Below are positions 24,076 to 34,243 of a DNA stretch of 64,000 nt, in pieces. The notes beneath the pieces are model-generated. The model ran no database searches. It worked only from the letters and a program-made list of their open reading frames with translations, and was not told the DNA's origin. The stretch is from an uncultured delta proteobacterium (lineage in GTDB: Bacteria > Myxococcota > Myxococcia > Myxococcales > Myxococcaceae). Every line of letters begins with the position of its first letter. The first letter of the stretch is position 1. The translations under genes and the position numbers were made by a program. The stretch lies in assembly GCA_963771175.1 (NCBI GenBank), contig CAVYSY010000021.1:236151-300150 (forward strand), read 5' to 3'.

Positions 24076-26665
24076 TCAGCTCAGCACCTTCATCGTGCCT
24101 CGCGTGACGCCGAACTGCTCGTGCACGGCCGTGCGCCGCACCGCCTCGGCCGGGGAGATTCTTCCGGCGAGCAGCTCCTGGTAGGCGGCCAGCACCCGGG
24201 CGGCTTCCTCGCGCGACTCACGGACGAACTCCACCCGGTAGCGGCGCACGCCCCGCTCCAGCAGCTTCGGCACCAGCGAGGCCGCGCTCTGCGCCTGCGC
24301 GTTGAACACCGTGTTGCGGCACCCCACGTCCACGATGACCGGGTGCTCCAGCCCGATGCGGTCCCTCAGCGAGATTTGATGCTGCTCGCACGGGCGGCCG
24401 CAGCTCTTGAAGTCGCGCCCGTTGGAGAGCGTGTGCGAGTACACGCAGTGCTCCGTGTGGAACGTGGCGATGTGGTGGTGCAGTGCCACCGCGAAGCGGT
24501 GCGCCGGCGCGTGGTCGAGCAGCGAGAAGAGCTGCGTCTCGTCCAGGTCGTGCGAGAAGGTGAGCGTGTCCAGCCCCAGGCTCAGCAGGTGCGCCGCCGT
24601 CAGCGAGTTGGTGACGTTGAGCGAGAAGTCCCCGTGCAGCACCGGGCGTGGCTGGCCCTCGGGTCGCTCCAGGAAGTGCACCATCGCGCCCCAGTGCCGC
24701 ACCAGCACCGCGTCCGGGCGCAGCTTGTCGATGCGCGCGTCGTAGCCCTCCTCGCCCGGCTTCTGCACGCGCACGGTGGCGATCGTCACGCGCAGCCCCG
24801 CCGCCCGCGCCCGCTCCACCGCGCGCTGCAGGCCCACCATCTCCATCCAGTCCAGCTCCACCTCGCGCAGGCCGGCGGCGATGACGGCCTCCAACTGCTC
24901 GTCGTTCCGGCACAGCGGCAGCAGGCGCGCTCCGTCCTCGGCCGGCACCTCGGGCACTCGCGCGAGCAGCGAGGCCCGCACCTGCTCCTTCACCGATGTC
25001 TGCGTCACCGTGCGCGCGTGGCCCCGCTCCACCGCGGCGGTGAGCTCGGCCACGAGGTCGCGGCGCAGGGCCTTGAGCTCGGAGACGGGCAGGTGCTGGC
25101 CCGGCGCCAACTCCGCGCAGTCCAGGTGCGCCAGCGTGAAGGGCGTGCCTCCGAAGGCGCCCAGCTTGTCCCGCAGCAGCGCCTCGTCCAGGCCCGCGCC
25201 CCGTGCCGGAGCCAGCGGCGTCTGGCTGGATGCCGAGCGCTCGTGCCCCCACGCGCTGGCATGCAGGTGCAGGGGCGCCCCCCGGCACTCCGGAGACCTT
25301 CAGCGTGAGCGGGATGCGACCCTCGGGCTCTCCCTGGGAGACGAGACTCTCGGTGCGGCGGGCCAGGGACGGGTCGCTGTTGAGCCACACGCGCTGGCCG
25401 GGCGCTACCCGCCCCAGGTCCGGGCCCGGGTGGCCGAAGCCCAGCACCCAGCCGTTGCCCCGCCGGTCCACGCGGAAGATGGGGCCTCCGGGCTCGTGCT
25501 TGTCCTCGGGCGTGCCCGCGTCGAAGACGACGCCCATGCCCGGGCGCGGGTCCACGGCAGCCGGCTCGGTCTCTCCCGAGAGAGGCGAGGACACCTGTCC
25601 GTTGGGGGCCTCGGGGCGCTCCTCGCCCAGGCCGAGTCCACCCGTCCACGGGCGCTCATCGGGGGTGACGAGCACCTCCTTGCCGGACACGGAGCGGACG
25701 CGGCCGAGGTACAGACCCCGGTGCTTGGGGAAGCGGCCCTCGACGAGCGTCTGGTGGTCCGAGCCCGCGAGGAAGCCGTTGGAGAAGCCGCGGCTGTACG
25801 TGAGGGACATGTCGGCCAGATCGCTCGCCAGCCGCCGCTCATCCGGCTTGCCGGCGACGACGCCGTCCACCCAGCGCCGGTACCCCTGCACGGTCGTAGT
25901 CACGTACTGCGGGCCCTTCAGGCGGCCTTCAATCTTCAGGCTGTGGACGCCGATGTCCACGAGCTCGGGGATGGCGCGCACGCCCGCGAGGTCCTTGGGG
26001 CTGAGCAGGTACCGCACCTCGCCCAGGTCGCGCGTCTGGCCATCCACCACCAGGTCATACGGCAGGCGGCATGACTGGGCGCACTGGCCCCGGTTGGCCG
26101 AGCGTCCACCCCAGGCCTCGCTCGTGAGGCACTGGCCGCTCCACGACATGCAGAGGGCGCCGTGGATGAAGACCTCCAGCTCCATGTCCGTCTGCCCGGC
26201 CAGCCGACGGATTTCGGTGACGGAGAGCTCGCGCGGCACGACGACGCGGGTGACGCCCAGGCCCCGGGCGAAGCGGATGCCCTCGGCGCTGGAGATGGTC
26301 ATCTGCGTGGAGGCGTGCAGCTCCAGCTGGGGGCAAAGGGCGCGGGCCAGCAGGGCGATGGCCGGGTCCTGGATGATGAGGGCGTCCACACCCGACTCGG
26401 CCACCCGGCGCAGGATGCGCTCCACCACGGGCAGCTCGGGCTCGAAGACGAGCGTGTTGAGCGTCACGTAGGCACGAGCCCCGGCCCGGTGGACGAGCGC
26501 CATCGTCTCGGGGAGGCGCTCCAGGGAGAAGTTGTCCGCGCGGGCCCGGGCGTTGAAGCCCTCGTCGAGCCCGAAATAGACGGCGTCCGCTCCGCTTGCG
26601 AGCGCGGCCTGGAGGGATTCGAGGTCTCCCGCGGGAGCGAGGATTTCAGGACGTCGGGAAGGCAT
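24076..26665 (-). CDS. U32-family protein with DUF3656 region (RlhA-like Fe-S hydroxylase), frameshifted at ~25100-25290
   Basis: PEILAPAG, GADAVYFG, HASTQ, HGALCMSWSGQC...NRGQCAQSCRLPY Cys cluster, LKIEGRLK; C-terminal DVGCRNTVFN. Confidence 0.9.
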
Positions 26666-26819
26666 GCCGTCTCCCATAACACGCCCCCGCCGCCCCGGAG
26701 TTCCCCGCTGGCGGAGCCCCACGGGTGCCCGGTTGTCCAAGTGGGTTCCTCCCTCGCGGCGGGTCTGGTAGGCACCCGCGTGCACGCCTCGGCCGGGGGT
26801 GCGCAAAGAGGAGGGGGAC

Positions 26820-28577
26820 ATGTTCTTGCCGAAGCAACTCGGGGTCCTGGGGTTCGTCCTGGGCGCCGCACTCGCGGTGAGCTGTGGGTCCGGCGACGAG
26901 CCGGAGATCGACTTCATCCTGCCGAGCGAGGGGATGGTCACCCGAGGCGAGCTGGGCATTGCCCTGCGCGTGCAGGGCATCGCGCCAGAGCGGGTGTCGC
27001 TCTTCGTGGATGAGGCCTGGCTGGCGAACCTCGAGGAGGCCAGCTACCGCTGGGACACGCGGAGCTGGCCCGAGGGCGAGCACACGCTGATCGCCCGTGC
27101 CTTCGCCGCGGACGAGGTCTACTCGAGCAAGGGGCTCAAGGTGGTGGTGGACCGGACGCCGCCCCAGATCGTCTCGATGCAGCCCGCGCCGGGGACGAGC
27201 GACGTCGCGGTGGATGCGCCCATCTCGCTCGTCTTCTCGGAGCCTCTCGCGGCCTCCGTGCTCGCCACCGCCTCGCTCCTGGTGAGCGTGAGCGGGGAGG
27301 GGACGGAGACCCTCGAGCCCTCCAGCCTGTCCCCGGATGGGAGGACGCTCTTCTTCCCGAGACCCTCCCGCCCCTACCTGCCGCCCGTCACCATCTCCGC
27401 CCTGCTCGTGGGCAGCGTGGAGGATGCGGTGGGCAACGTCCTGGTGCCGGCGCGTGACTCGGGCTGGTCCTGGCAGGTGCCGGTACTGCTGTCGGTGGGA
27501 GATGCCATGGCGGACCTCGACACCTCATCTCGTCCGTTCGGCGCCAGGGTCGCCTTGCGGCCCGACGGCGAGGGCCGGCCGGTGGTCGCCTGGAGCCCGT
27601 CGCCTGGCTACGTGTTTACACGCCGATGGGATGGCACGAAGTGGGTCTCGCTTCCCTCGGGTCTCGAGGTCTCCGTCAATGGCGCCTTCACCGCCAACGA
27701 CATCGTGCTGGATGCCCAGGGCCGTCCCTCGGTCGCCTGGGGCGCGACGTTGGCCCAGGGGGGCCGGTCCGCGACCTACGTGTATCGCCTGGAAGAAGCG
27801 CAGTGGAAGTTCCTGGGCGGTGTCGGTACCAATCCCGAGGGCGAGTTCCCCATCATCAAGCACGTGGCGCTGCGCGTCGCCCCTTCGGGGCTGCCCCGAG
27901 TCGCCTGGCTGGCGGAGTCGAAGACGACGCCGGGGCGCGCGGAGGTGATGGTGGTCCAGTCGCGCGGCGAGCCGGGATGGGACTTCAGCGCGCGCTCGAC
28001 CAATGCCTTGCTGGAGCGGAGCCTGGCGTTGGAGGTCACTGCCTCGGGAGACCCCGTGGTGGCATGGAGCGAGCGCACCGAGTCGTCCGGGTTTCGCATC
28101 GCGGTCCACCGGGTGGTGGCCACCGGGTGGGAGAGCCTGCCCGGGACGCCGTTGAGCACCGGCTCCGTCCATAATCCCTCCCTGGCGCTGGAGTCGGACG
28201 GGACTCCGTTGCTGGCCTGGAGTCGCGATGGAGCCATCGAGGTGCGTCGCTGGGCTGGTGGTGAGTGGCAGCCGGTGGGCCAGCCCATCCCGACTCCCAT
28301 GGGCAAGGCCAACCTGGTCGTTTCGGCTCTGGTGCTGCGGGCCTCTGGGCAGCCCCTGCTCGCCTGGAGCTATCCTGGCTGGGCGGAGGTATGGGGGTGG
28401 AAGGAAGGCGCCTGGGTCCAGCTGGCGATGCTCCGCCAGCCCACCTTTGAGGATGCGTCGCCCTGGCCCGTCTTCCTGCGGGTGGAGGGCACGGGCTCTC
28501 CGGTGATGGCCTGGATGCGGCGGGACAGCTCCTACCTGGGACGCGGCTCCCTGGACGTGTACCGCCTCAACCTCTGA
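26820..28577 (+). CDS. Lipoprotein with Ig-like (Big) domains and a repetitive beta-rich C-terminal region
   Basis: Lipobox AVSC; WDTR..PEGEHTL.ARA; VDRTPPQIVS..PA; repeated G.PVVAW...RRW.G..W units. Confidence 0.8.
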   Translation: MFLPKQLGVLGFVLGAALAVSCGSGDEPEIDFILPSEGMVTRGELGIALRVQGIAPERVSLFVDEAWLANLEEASYRWDTRSWPEGEHTLIARAFAADEVYSSKGLKVVVDRTPPQIVSMQPAPGTSDVAVDAPISLVFSEPLAASVLATASLLVSVSGEGTETLEPSSLSPDGRTLFFPRPSRPYLPPVTISALLVGSVEDAVGNVLVPARDSGWSWQVPVLLSVGDAMADLDTSSRPFGARVALRPDGEGRPVVAWSPSPGYVFTRRWDGTKWVSLPSGLEVSVNGAFTANDIVLDAQGRPSVAWGATLAQGGRSATYVYRLEEAQWKFLGGVGTNPEGEFPIIKHVALRVAPSGLPRVAWLAESKTTPGRAEVMVVQSRGEPGWDFSARSTNALLERSLALEVTASGDPVVAWSERTESSGFRIAVHRVVATGWESLPGTPLSTGSVHNPSLALESDGTPLLAWSRDGAIEVRRWAGGEWQPVGQPIPTPMGKANLVVSALVLRASGQPLLAWSYPGWAEVWGWKEGAWVQLAMLRQPTFEDASPWPVFLRVEGTGSPVMAWMRRDSSYLGRGSLDVYRLNL

Positions 28578-28786: not shown

Positions 28787-30397
<1,611 letters not shown>

Positions 30398-30422
30398 TTC
30401 GCTGCTGACGTGAGAGGTACTT

Positions 30423-30475
30423 CGGGCCGTTGGCCTGGGGGGTCAGCCCCTCCGAGCCAGCGGCCCGTTGCTTTT
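30423..30475 (+). terminator. Probable intrinsic terminator of the amidase gene
   Basis: CGGGCCGTTGGC...GCCAGCGGCCCG stem followed by TTGCTTTT, 25 nt after the stop codon. Confidence 0.65.
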
Positions 30476-30666
30476 CCGGGCAGGTGTCCGAAATGGGGAC
30501 AGAGGTGTTCGTTTCCGGGACAGGTGGGTTGGACGCGACAACCTGTTGGACTGTCAACGAAATACGGCGATTTTGTCATGACGCTTTACATTCCAGGAAT
30601 GGGAGGTGGAGCGTTGACGCACCGGGTCGGAGGATGGGTCTTCCATCAATTCAAGGGGTTGAGCTC

Positions 30667-30682
30667 TGGCACGGAGCCTGCT
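30667..30682 (+). promoter_or_regulatory. Sigma54 (-24/-12) promoter candidate
   Basis: TGGCACGGAGCCTGCT has GG-N10-GC spacing and matches TGGCACG-N4-TTGCW at all but one position. Confidence 0.65.
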
Positions 30683-30692
30683 TTAGAGGACA

Positions 30693-30767
30693 GCGGCCGT
30701 CTCCTCACGGCCAGACGAGAGCGGCGGACGGCCCTTTGCCAGAGGGGTCGCCCGCCGCTGTTTTTTT
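30693..30767 (+). ncRNA. Candidate ~75-nt small RNA
   Basis: Begins at the predicted sigma54 +1; hairpin GGCCGT-CTCCTC-ACGGCC, then a GC-rich terminator stem (30721-30758) and a T7 run; no ORF. Confidence 0.5.
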
Positions 30768-30784
30768 CCTCGTCCGCTGGTGCT

Positions 30785-33739
30785 TCAGGCCGGGTGCGGC
30801 GTCTGCCCCCCGCCCTCCGGCGGCTTCCCGTGCTCGCGGCGCTTGAGCAGCTTCGTTCGCGCCAGCTCCACCAGCGTGTACAGCACGGGGATGAAGATGA
30901 GGTTGACGAAGGTGGACAGGAGCATGCCGCCGAACACCGCCGTGCCCAGTGACTTGCGCGAGGCGGCGCCCGCTCCCGAGGCCAGCACCAGCGGCACCAC
31001 GCCCAGGAGGAAGGCGAAGGACGTCATCAGGATGGGCCGCAGCCGCGTGTCCGCCGCCAGGATGGCCGAGTCCACCACGCTCTTGCCCTGGCGACGGAGC
31101 TGCTCGGCGAACTCGACGATGAGCACCGCGTTCTTGCTGGCCAGGCCCACCAGCATCAGCAGCCCCACCTGGCAGAAGACGTCGTTGGCCAGTCCGCGCA
31201 GCAGTTGGAAGCCGAGCGCGCCGAGCATGGCCACCGGCACCGCCAGCATGATGACGAAGGGCAGGGCGAAGCTCTCGTACTGCCCCGACAGCACCAGGAA
31301 GACGAAGACGCCGCCCAGCAGGAAGATGAGCAGCACCATGCCGCCGGCCTGCGTCTGCTCGAGCGACAGGCCCGTCCATTCGAAGGTGAAGCCGGCGGGC
31401 AGACCCTGGCGGGCCACGGACTCCATGACCTGGAGCGCCTGTCCCGTGCTGACGCCGGGAGCGCCCTGGCCGTTGATGGTGGCCGAGCGGAACAGGTTGT
31501 AGTGCTGGATGTTCTGCGCGGTGGTGATGGGCTCCACCTTCACCAGGCTCTCCAGCGGCACCATGTCGCCCTGGGCCGAGCGCACGTAGAAGGCGGAGAT
31601 GTCCCGGGGCTCGTTGCGGAAGGGCGTGGCCGCCTGCACGTAGACGCGGTAGACGCGGTTGGCGAAGGTGAAGTCGTTGACGTACTGGCTGCCCATGTAG
31701 ACCTGGAGCGTGGAGTAGAGCGCGTCGAGCGGCACCCCGAGCGCCTTGGCCTTCTCGCGGTCCACCGACACGTTGAGCAGTGGGGTGCTCGCCGTATAGG
31801 AGGAGAAGACGCCGCGCAGTTCCGGTAACTGGTTGGCCTGGGCCGAGAGCTGCTGCGTGGCCGCCGCCAGCTCGTCCAGCGTGTGGGTGCCCTGCTGGTC
31901 CTCCAGCACGAACTCGAAGCCGCCGACGCTGCCCACGCCGCGGATGGTGGGCGGCTGGAAGGGCAGCACCCGCGCTCCGGGGATGGCGGCGAAGGGCCCG
32001 CGCAGCCGGTTCACCAGCCCCGCCACGCTCTGCTCCTGCTCCTCGCGCTCGTCCCAGGGGGCGAGGTTGACGAAGAGGACGCCGTAGTTGGCGCCGGTGC
32101 CCAGCAGCGAGAAGCCGCCCACGGTGAAGATGTCCTTCACCTCCTTCTGCTGGCGCAGCACGTCCTCCGTCCGCAGCAGCACCTGCCGCGTGTAGTCCAG
32201 CGACGTGCCCTCGGGGCCCTGGATGGCGACGATGAGGTAGCCCTGGTCCTCCTCGGGGATGAAGCCGGTGGGGGTGACGGTGTAGAGCAGCGCCGTGAGG
32301 CCCAGGCACGCCACGAAGACGCCCAGCACCACCCACCGCATGGCCGGCCGCAGCAGCCGGTCCAGGAAGCGCGCGTAGCCGGTGCGCAGGCGGTCCATGC
32401 CCTGGTCCACCAGGCGGAAGACGCGCCACTTCTGGCCCTCATGGGGCCGCAGCAGCCGCGCGCACAGGGCGGGCGACAGCGTGAGGGCCACCAGGGCCGA
32501 CAGGCTGATGGAGAAGGCGATGGTGAGGGCGAACTGCCGGTAGATGGAGCCCGTGGTGCCCGGGAAGAAGGACACCGGGACGAACACCGCGGAGAGCACC
32601 AGCGCCGTGGCCACCACCGCGCCTCCCACCTGCTTCATGCTCCGGTGCGACGCCTCGTGCGCCTCCAGGTTGTCGTCCGCCATGAGGCGCTCGACGTTCT
32701 CGATGACCACGATGGCGTCGTCCACCACCAGGCCCGTGGCCAGTGTCAGGCCGAACAGCGTCAGCGTGTTGAGCGAGAAGCCGAACGCGCTCACGAAGCC
32801 GAAGGTGCCCACCAGCGACACCGGCAGCGTCGTGGCCACCACGAGGATGCTGCGCCAGCCGTGCAGGAAGATGAAGACGACGAAGATGACCAGCGCGATG
32901 GCTTCCATCAGCGTGCGCAGCACCTCGTCGATGGACTCCTGCACCGCCGCCGTGGTGTCGAAGGCTCTCTGGTGGACGAGGCCCGGGGGGAAGCTGGCCT
33001 TCAGCCGCTCCAGCTCGGCCACCACCCCCTCGCGCACGTCCAGCGCGTTGGAGCCGGGGAGCTGGAAGATGCCCAGGCCCACCGCGTCGCGGCCGTTGAA
33101 GCGCAGGAACTGGTTGTAGTTCTCCGCCCCCAGCTCCACCCGGCCCACGTCCTTCACCTGCACCAGCGAGCCGTCCTGGCCGCGCTGCACGACGATGTCC
33201 CCGAACTGCTCCGGCGTGGACAGCCGGCCGAGCACCTGCACGTTGATTTGATACGTCTGCCCCTGGGGCGCCGGAGGCTGGCCCACCTGGCCCGCGGCCA
33301 CCTGCACGTTCTGCTCGCGCAGCGCGGCCACCACGTCCTGCGCCGTGAGGCCCCGGCTGGCCAGGGCCGTGGGGTCCAACCACAGCCGCATGGCGAAGCG
33401 GCGCTCGCCGAAGATGCGCACGTCGCCCACGCCCTTCACGCGCAGCAGCGCGTCGCGGATGTAGACGTCCGCGTAGTTGCTGATGAAGCCCGGGTCGTAG
33501 CGCCCCTCCTTGTCATACAGGCCGAAGGACATGAGGAGCTGCGACTGCGTCTTGTTGATGGTGATGCCCTGCGCGTTCACCTCGGCGGGCAGCCGGGCCG
33601 AGGCGGTGGCCACCCGGTTCTGCACGTCCACCGCGGCCACGTCCAGGTTCCTCTCCGGGTCGAACGTGACGATGATGGTGCTGGTGCCGTTGTTGCTGCT
33701 GGTGGAGGAGATGTAGCGCATGCCCTCCAGGCCGTTGAT
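30785..33739 (-). CDS. RND efflux permease (HAE1/AcrB-like), 5'-truncated at the junction
   Basis: INGLEGMRYISSTS, GLVVDDAIVVIENVER, GLASKNAVLIVEFA, RLRPILMTSFAF; the first TM helix and start are missing. Confidence 0.9.
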   Translation of the reverse strand: MNGLEGMRYISSTSSNNGTSTIIVTFDPERNLDVAAVDVQNRVATASARLPAEVNAQGITINKTQSQLLMSFGLYDKEGRYDPGFISNYADVYIRDALLRVKGVGDVRIFGERRFAMRLWLDPTALASRGLTAQDVVAALREQNVQVAAGQVGQPPAPQGQTYQINVQVLGRLSTPEQFGDIVVQRGQDGSLVQVKDVGRVELGAENYNQFLRFNGRDAVGLGIFQLPGSNALDVREGVVAELERLKASFPPGLVHQRAFDTTAAVQESIDEVLRTLMEAIALVIFVVFIFLHGWRSILVVATTLPVSLVGTFGFVSAFGFSLNTLTLFGLTLATGLVVDDAIVVIENVERLMADDNLEAHEASHRSMKQVGGAVVATALVLSAVFVPVSFFPGTTGSIYRQFALTIAFSISLSALVALTLSPALCARLLRPHEGQKWRVFRLVDQGMDRLRTGYARFLDRLLRPAMRWVVLGVFVACLGLTALLYTVTPTGFIPEEDQGYLIVAIQGPEGTSLDYTRQVLLRTEDVLRQQKEVKDIFTVGGFSLLGTGANYGVLFVNLAPWDEREEQEQSVAGLVNRLRGPFAAIPGARVLPFQPPTIRGVGSVGGFEFVLEDQQGTHTLDELAAATQQLSAQANQLPELRGVFSSYTASTPLLNVSVDREKAKALGVPLDALYSTLQVYMGSQYVNDFTFANRVYRVYVQAATPFRNEPRDISAFYVRSAQGDMVPLESLVKVEPITTAQNIQHYNLFRSATINGQGAPGVSTGQALQVMESVARQGLPAGFTFEWTGLSLEQTQAGGMVLLIFLLGGVFVFLVLSGQYESFALPFVIMLAVPVAMLGALGFQLLRGLANDVFCQVGLLMLVGLASKNAVLIVEFAEQLRRQGKSVVDSAILAADTRLRPILMTSFAFLLGVVPLVLASGAGAASRKSLGTAVFGGMLLSTFVNLIFIPVLYTLVELARTKLLKRREHGKPPEGGGQTPHPA

Positions 33740-34243
33740 GCCGCCGCCTACAATGCCGGCGAGAAGCAAGTCGCGGCAGTAATTGCCGGCAGGAGCAGCC
33801 TGCCACTTGAGACGCAAAATTACGTGTTTGCCATCACCGGACGCCAAGTCGCGGACTGGCTCGGTGTCACTCATCCAACAGCACCGTTTTCAACCGAGCA
33901 CGATAGCAATGACTTCGTCAGGTCATGTTTGCGACGTGTTAGAGTAAATTTCCGCGACTCCGAAATACCGGCTGCAACGACTGTCCAACCCTGGGGCGTC
34001 CAGGTTTCCGAAAGTTTCTCGCGCAGCCAGGCAGTCAACATTTTTCGAGCACTTCAAGAGCGACTGCCTGGTATATTTGGCACTTCACCGCCCATGATCA
34101 TCGCCGCGCGGAATTACAGCATTGGCTTGGCACTACGCCAGCGAGTCTTTTTGGGCGCCGCAAACCGGGCCGAAGCCGACAGCAAATGCGCTGCCTTGAA
34201 CCAGGTAGGCGTCGCGTGCCTGGTGCGGCGAACCGGACGCTAG
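33740..34243 (+). CDS. 3' part of a lytic transglycosylase (SLT + SPOR-like), 5'-truncated
   Basis: AAAYNAGE...LPLETQNYV.AITG (SLT motif III) and QPWGVQV...A...C..L...G.ACLV (SPOR-like tail). Confidence 0.8.
   Translation, partial: AAAYNAGEKQVAAVIAGRSSLPLETQNYVFAITGRQVADWLGVTHPTAPFSTEHDSNDFVRSCLRRVRVNFRDSEIPAATTVQPWGVQVSESFSRSQAVNIFRALQERLPGIFGTSPPMIIAARNYSIGLALRQRVFLGAANRAEADSKCAALNQVGVACLVRRTGR

Follow-up and report, generated by a model that had tools for sequence, protein, structure and literature searches.

A sigma-54-type promoter, an anti-Shine-Dalgarno hairpin and a terminator conserved together in Archangium very probably form an uncatalogued small regulatory RNA gene

The window, that is the whole stretch of 64,000 nucleotides that was analysed, comes from the source genome G000 (other G numbers denote genomes of relatives, L numbers the loci compared and C numbers contigs). 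Between an amidase gene and a convergent AcrB-family (RND) gene it holds a sigma-54 promoter box followed by two hairpins and a T-run (Table 1). The positions of the box, hairpin, terminator and upstream repeats given in a preliminary description of this DNA were all verified in the window sequence. The box has GG at 30668-9 and GC at 30680-1, and the +1 of the predicted small RNA (sRNA) was placed at about 30693 because this is the canonical spacing from a sigma-54 box. For the 77-nt sRNA strand, folding predicts two hairpins, one of 18 nt that presents CUCCUC in its loop and one of 38 nt that forms the terminator (-45 kcal/mol, z = -4.4; 1 of 200 shuffles did as well), in agreement with the fold of hairpin plus terminator proposed earlier. 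The terminator of the amidase gene folds at -40 kcal/mol (z = -4.9). A hairpin with a T-run follows 6 of the 86 strict sigma-54 boxes in G000, namely four Pxr genes, the sRNA locus and one other candidate; the chance rate, under a slightly looser rule, was 41 of 6000 random positions. A simple terminator scan reported no terminator at the sRNA locus, probably because the stems have mismatches and long loops.

Table 1. Features of the sRNA unit and its immediate neighbours (window coordinates)
Feature	Position	Strand	Details
Amidase-gene terminator	30423..30475	+	upstream of the sRNA unit; insulates the unit here, outside the unit
Upstream activator-like site 1, TGTCC-N7-GGACA, 17-bp palindrome	30485..30501	.	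182 bp before box; -182 to -184 in 17/17, 0-2 mismatches
Upstream activator-like site 2, same palindrome as site 1	30506..30522	.	21 bp after site 1; -161 to -163 in 17/17
Third dyad, TGTCA-N7-TTACA, 17-bp	30574..30590	.	-92 to -94 in 17/17
Fourth conserved motif, GTGGAG-N3-TGACGCACC-N-GGTC	30606..30628	+	from alignment of 17 upstream regions
IHF-like site beside sigma-54 box	30649..30661	+	similar sequence in homologues
Sigma-54 -24/-12 promoter box	30667..30682	+	TGGCAC-N5-CTGCT; TGGCA and TGCT invariant 17/17
Predicted small RNA, short form, ~75 nt	30693..30767	+	start inferred from box spacing; 73 bits with the long-form-built model
Stem-loop 1; loop CUCCUC 30701-30706, presumed seed	30695..30712	+	loop identical in 6/6 short forms; accessible
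Intrinsic terminator of sRNA	30721..30767	+	stem 30721-30758; T7 30761-30767; plus-strand T-run 17/17
Convergent AcrB-family (RND) gene	30785..33748	-	PF00873; 5' end missing at junction; outside sRNA unit

Alignment of the upstream regions showed that the dyads, the GTGGAG...TGACGCACC motif and the IHF-like site stand at fixed distances from the box in 17/17. The IHF-like site has one mismatch to what we take to be the IHF consensus, WATCAANNNNTTR. The direct repeats noted upstream in the preliminary description are present at 30473-30486 and 30512-30526, but the conserved element is the pair of palindromes, which the repeats partly overlap. The near-consensus reading of the -24/-12 box was borne out by its retention in all 17 homologues, the consensus used for comparison being that in the available text of PMC7910581. 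As far as its sequence tells, the unit has the general attributes of a sigma-54 sRNA gene: its own box, activator sites 80-200 bp away, its own terminator and no ORF. The Myxococcus xanthus sites set out in the accessible parts of PMC4320627, PMC3509222 and PMC7910581 are TGTYN8RAC for MrpC, TAATC-N14-GATTA for DigR and CT(C/G)CG(C/G)AG repeats for Nla28. Compared by eye, the sites of the sRNA promoter (TGTC-N9-GACA) equal an MrpC site plus one base and are unlike those of DigR and Nla28, and membership in these three regulons was rejected. The GTGGAG...TGACGCACC motif was also seen at L211 (G108), towards the 3' end of what seems to be the coding sequence of an enhancer-binding protein, where it may be due to chance.

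The genes around the unit vary among the genomes. The RND gene is adjacent in 9/17, displaced by an insertion in 5/17 and absent from the locus in 3/17, and the amidase lies upstream in two of the 17 genomes, most long forms having a divergent aminotransferase instead. The terminator stays with the promoter in all 17, with the T-run always on the plus strand. The idea of a standalone sigma-54 sRNA gene with an exposed anti-Shine-Dalgarno loop is supported in that promoter, loop and terminator are kept together in 17 genomes while the flanks change. Compared with a relative's copy in L009, the amidase ORF of the window (28787-30397) is out of frame at about 29150-29470; the U32 peptidase gene (24076-26980) is split across two frames, and both probably reflect sequencing indels. 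The RND gene is cut short near 33748, and from there (~33749-64000) GC content drops from about 70% to 57-62%; this part, which extends to the contig end, has a MucR/Ros gene and others of alphaproteobacterial appearance. The assembly showed no separate 5' part of this gene for the RND protein. This junction is probably a chimeric join that leaves the sRNA locus unaffected.

The homologues occur in two forms. The short form (75-82 nt) is present in 6 genomes including the source genome, and the long form (99-103 nt), in which the stem is extended and the loop consists of CUC repeats over 11 or 13 nt, in 11. CUCCUC lies within the loop of every form (17/17), and the long-form loops show just two variants among 11. 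Identity of the loop is 100% in short and 93% in long forms, against 78-81% for the whole of stem-loop 1; it is 53% (short) and 51% (long) for the spacer between the upstream dyads and 36% (short) and 41% (long) for the 30 nt past the T-run. In the long forms 7 of 31 pairs are changed on both sides, three of them in stem-loop 1 and four of 14 in the terminator, giving a covariation score that 0 of 500 shuffles reached under a control that ignores kinship. The short forms alone (n = 6, window included) gave no significant covariation, with 1/21 pairs and 176/500 shuffles as high, so that the covarying stems sought as a check of the earlier proposal are found in the 11 long forms but not in the 6 short ones. 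As to which form is older, a gyrB tree places the short forms in three well-supported pairs on an unresolved backbone, and the AU test gave p = 0.049 for one short clade and p = 0.059 for one long clade. No conserved ORF was found within the unit on either strand in 17 genomes, in agreement with the lack of coding capacity noted earlier: the plus strand has no start common to the homologues, and the minus strand has no start codon in the short forms and ORFs of 1-83 codons in the long ones.

BLAST matched the sRNA region in 16 of the 17 other Archangium genomes, the missing one being a 73% complete genome, and gave no match in 43 genomes from other genera. Conservation of the promoter and first hairpin in relatives, the test named beforehand, is thus seen in 16/17 other genomes of the genus, which are related and hence non-independent samples. 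A covariance model trained on the 11 long forms recovered the sRNA in 9/9 Archangium genomes, and among 111 non-genus genomes (26 candidates per genome scored) it gave only 28-32-bit matches in three, which on reading were terminators of unrelated genes. A deeper model search returned nothing in three sister-genus genomes (0/3) and four 21-23-bit matches in two other genera, and BLAST with the long form in 5 genomes gave just two short matches, both within coding sequence. In a pattern scan of GTDB, 27 matches were obtained, 12 Archangium/Vitiosangium records at 54-161 bits and the other 15 at no more than 23.2 bits; the 12 named records overlap genomes already counted and are not additional homologues. 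A similar scan of metagenomes gave 31 matches, of which one contig above 50 bits is a true homologue and the others reach at most 23.2 bits. These large searches were filtered weakly, and a negative there means not found rather than absent. A probe of third dyad plus box hit 4 places in 3 of 62 other genomes; three were read, none with the sRNA, and apparent coding starts or unrelated sequence lay behind them. At the syntenic site behind the aminotransferase, no promoter was found in 3/3 non-genus genomes with the gene (10 searched), and in a sister-genus genome this gene interval is occupied by a lipoprotein gene and a comparable terminator, without promoter. In Rfam, neither the window nor any of 3 long-form loci reached a gathering score. 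Because it is present across Archangium and was not found beyond, the sRNA family looks as old as the genus.

The locus was also matched in two sequencing runs. One of them, of RNA, gave an unstranded soil contig of depth 3.8 that overruns the predicted sRNA on both sides, by about 6 nt at the +1 and by about 70 nt beyond the terminator. The second of the two runs covers 30366-31300 with 9 differences, none of the listed ones within the predicted sRNA.

The promoter type of the sRNA is shared with secreted peptidase genes. Among 201 genomes of the family, 21 contain the exact pattern of palindrome plus box, at 33 places in all; reversed, the pattern occurs nowhere. Ten of these places are the sRNA gene itself; 20 other loci were fetched and 17 scanned, three near-duplicates being omitted. 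Peptidase genes (M10/M57-like, M4, S8 and trypsin-like) follow in 16 of the 17, and their products have signal peptides or lipoboxes as judged by eye. Over 190 ungapped nt, the promoters of L065 and L066, which precede M10/M57-like metalloprotease genes, are 47-48% identical to the sRNA promoter, compared with 28-36% for the other 15, and the closest protease promoters have a dyad related to the third dyad at an equal position. These likenesses suggest that the sRNA promoter probably descended from the promoter of a protease gene. TGTCC-N7-GGACA was seen about 160-175 bp before the box at L057, L064-L076, L079-L081, L083 and L084, in five genera of the family. G000 itself has the same promoter type at C32:377662 and less perfect examples at C47:44296 and C56:63929. 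A perfect palindrome, TGTCCGAC-N-GTCGGACA, also stands upstream of a sigma-54-like box in G000 at C26:485281 (+), where the ORF behind it is presumably RecA-like from its N-terminus, and at L078, where a short non-peptidase ORF follows. Literature searches, mostly of open-access text, found no description of a TGTCC-N7-GGACA site or regulon, nor of the Archangium sRNA.

The next match of the sRNA model in G000 is C57:146099, where a hairpin follows a promoter of this type after a short interior. At this locus (C57:145884-146224 in G000, L085; L086-L099) a protease gene has been lost between sigma-54 promoter and terminator in most genomes of the genus. In G004 and G017 this promoter and hairpin still enclose an ORF of roughly 870 bp, which in G004 encodes a trypsin-like peptidase. 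The ORF is gone in 9 genomes, with an interior of 7-35 nt that is 38% identical, against 60% for the locus's own spacer; the box is lost in two further genomes, and the deletion ends differ among genomes. From this comparison, the C57 locus is a gene-deletion scar with an unconserved interior and serves as a control; the sRNA locus is unlike it, since its loop is kept at 93-100%. The scar illustrates how a layout of promoter plus terminator can arise, and with it a route by which such an sRNA can come into being.

In design, the cuckoo RNAs (ar14/NfeR1 and CcsR1-4) resemble the sRNA in having an exposed CCUCCU anti-Shine-Dalgarno loop that is kept while the stems vary, as the available text of PMC4615179 and PMC10746234 describes; ar14 is the Rfam family closest to the long form, whose loop nearly equals that of ar14. 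Membership was rejected: the long form scored 35.9 bits against a threshold of 58.8 for ar14 (RF02344) and 20.4 against 65.3 for CcsR1 (RF02791), and neither model matched in the window. The sRNA has one anti-Shine-Dalgarno loop, ending in CUC, whereas cuckoo loops end in CCC and cuckoo RNAs consist of 2-4 hairpin modules with CCUCCUCCC-type loops (accessible part of PMC4615179); the sRNA terminator also has a CCUC stretch, mostly paired. In the portions of PMC4615179 and PMC10746234 at hand, cuckoo RNAs occur only in Alphaproteobacteria among 2,680 genomes, and the promoters described are RpoH-type or controlled by LsrB/NtrC, unlike that of the sRNA. By analogy, the sRNA probably works like a cuckoo RNA without being one.

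Sigma-54 is known to drive other small RNAs, such as Qrr1-5 of Vibrio (LuxO), CrcZ of Pseudomonas (CbrB) and NrsZ (NtrC), in which a non-coding output turns activation into repression. These depend on or sequester Hfq, whereas the Archangium sRNA shares its activator site with secreted peptidase genes, and no sequence likeness to them was found in Rfam. MXnc1 is likewise an intergenic myxobacterial RNA and pairs near the Shine-Dalgarno sequences of several mRNAs (available text of bioRxiv 10.1101/2025.09.11.675593). Identity of the sRNA with MXnc1, which was compared by its description in that text alone, or with other M. xanthus candidates is unlikely because no homologue was found in the non-Archangium genomes searched. 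G000 contains two further sigma-54 RNA candidates. One, on the minus strand of C26 (box at 136171; L194, L195), would be about 77 nt long, with a hairpin bearing a CAUAG-type loop and a terminator; its region matches 17/17 other genomes of the genus, and of the 15 loci fetched, 5 were read as having all three elements, one of them with an extra 5' hairpin. The other, at C21:45416 (+), is C-rich, about 92 nt long and has three hairpins and a C-run loop, unlike the Archangium sRNA in loop and layout.

The 16S rRNA of G000 ends in CCUCCUUU, and the sRNA loop matches the anti-Shine-Dalgarno sequence over 5-6 nt, with the long forms extending in register. The loop is predicted to be free to pair at zero opening cost. 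GAGGAG was the commonest 6-mer before predicted starts (395/8105, with a crude start picker that favours such words). Hfq was not found in 5/5 complete Archangium genomes, with working controls. Target prediction was run in a single genome as had been proposed, but the ranking was flat and no target stood out, the best among 1870 regions reaching -11.6 kcal/mol; a 9-nt extended loop match occurred in 9 regions, about the chance expectation. GAGGAG preceded the called starts of 0/28 enhancer-binding-protein genes (crude starts) and of none of the protease leaders read, so there is no evident feedback target. Precedents come from NfeR1 (ar14 family), in which ntrB is silenced via anti-Shine-Dalgarno loops (accessible text of PMC10746234), and from Pxr and MXnc1 in Hfq-less M. 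xanthus, which pair near the Shine-Dalgarno sequences of several mRNAs (available text of bioRxiv 10.1101/2025.09.11.675593).

We infer that the unit is transcribed, and propose that an enhancer-binding protein, common to the unit and the peptidase genes, would bind the TGTCC-N7-GGACA sites 160-185 bp upstream, that IHF would bend the promoter DNA and that the sigma-54 polymerase would make an RNA of 75 nt (100 nt in most relatives) ending at its own terminator. The stems would hold the CU-rich loop open, and the loop would pair with the GAGGAG/AGGAGG Shine-Dalgarno sequences of several mRNAs, lowering their translation without Hfq. The sRNA would most likely be the repressing arm of the secreted-protease (feeding) sigma-54 regulon, given that genes for secreted peptidases are under the same activator site. 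Repression of several mRNAs is favoured because of the open Shine-Dalgarno-complementary loop, the likeness to cuckoo RNAs, the precedent of Pxr and MXnc1 and the failure to find Hfq, and on this analogy we consider it fairly probable. That the locus produces a functional RNA is likely, and we regard with reasonable confidence the full account, an independent, Archangium-specific, trans-acting and sigma-54-driven sRNA whose anti-Shine-Dalgarno loop represses mRNAs as an arm of the feeding regulon.

Several other explanations were weighed. The hairpins might do no more than terminate the convergent RND gene or structure its 3' end, the box being there by chance. In 9/17, 110-214 bp separate the end of the RND gene from the box, a similar hairpin lies behind it in a sister-genus genome without the promoter, and the RNA contig joins the sRNA region to the RND 3' end. 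The preliminary description had raised this reading itself, and it is contradicted by the T-run, which is on the plus strand in 17/17 with none on the RND strand, and by the hairpins, which keep with the promoter where the RND gene is displaced or absent; it also leaves the four conserved upstream motifs unexplained, and is extremely improbable. Scarcely better is the chance that the sRNA is a diverged Pxr paralogue acting in the same developmental gate. According to the consulted portions of PMC5568312, PMC5684412 and PMC11928866, Pxr lies directly downstream of pxrK-pxrR (nla19), has three stem-loops with a C-run in SL1, blocks fruiting-body development and is processed from a long to a short form. 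Both RNAs are myxobacterial and intergenic, with a sigma-54 promoter and upstream enhancer region, a GC-rich intrinsic terminator, no Hfq and a C-rich first loop, which is essential in Pxr (same portions of these sources). G000 multiplies pxr readily, with four true copies on contig C31 (81-99 bits) preceded by an enhancer-binding-protein gene, and an sRNA model that includes the promoter gives Pxr loci 26-30 bits. Against this, the window scores 14.5 bits and the long form 14.8 with the Pxr model (RF01812; gathering score 80), the sRNA has two hairpins and a CUC-repeat loop, CUCCUC, where Pxr has three and UUCCCCCCCAC, and Pxr promoters show at least 8 mismatches in 20 to the tandem palindrome. 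The sRNA was moreover not found beyond one genus, unlike Pxr, and is not beside pxrK/pxrR, its neighbours being amidase, aminotransferase, U32 peptidase, RND and other genes. The relation to Pxr, left open in the preliminary description, is one of analogy rather than membership, and on sequence grounds the paralogue reading is largely refuted.

The unit might instead be a functionless scar, left with promoter, leader hairpin and terminator after deletion of a protease coding sequence. This has happened at C57, two metalloprotease promoters resemble that of the sRNA, and some protease leaders start with a hairpin that has a 6-nt C-rich loop. However, the C57 interior is less conserved than its own spacer, whereas the loop and stem-loop 1 of the sRNA are well kept, all its promoter elements are present in 17/17, and no ORF lies inside the unit in any genome searched. 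We judge a present-day scar to be quite unlikely, although this account may be true of the origin of the sRNA rather than its present function. A functional RNA that uses its loop to bind a protein or to sponge up another RNA, instead of pairing with ribosome-binding sites, is also unlikely, if somewhat less so. Its 6-nt loop would pair weakly and unspecifically, no target stands out, the terminator apex CCAGA is also invariant (17/17), and sigma-54 RNAs such as CrcZ sequester proteins. The fit of the loop to the 16S rRNA, extended in register by the long forms, speaks against it. Motifs of the CsrA type are GGA loops and those of the Hfq/Crc type are CA-repeats; the sRNA has neither, and Hfq was not found.

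Taken together, the observations make it very probable that Archangium, a predatory soil bacterium, has at this locus a real gene for a small regulatory RNA that is so far uncatalogued. More tentatively, and with some doubt, the sRNA may have been born in the Archangium ancestor when a protease sigma-54 promoter was joined to a terminator, its cuckoo-like loop having arisen by convergence, and may have become the repressing arm of an undescribed protease regulon. If such a birth from a protease gene is true, G000 shows both outcomes, one locus fixed as a functional RNA and the other, at C57, decaying as a scar, and this pair makes the origin of sRNAs from collapsed genes testable. The TGTCC-N7-GGACA site, common to the secreted-peptidase sigma-54 promoters of the family, offers a direct handle on the activator of the feeding enzymes. 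In the literature found, Pxr alone among myxobacterial small RNAs has a studied function, and the Archangium sRNA adds a genus-wide family in cultured, non-pathogenic species, in which the seed and promoter are defined and can be mutated.
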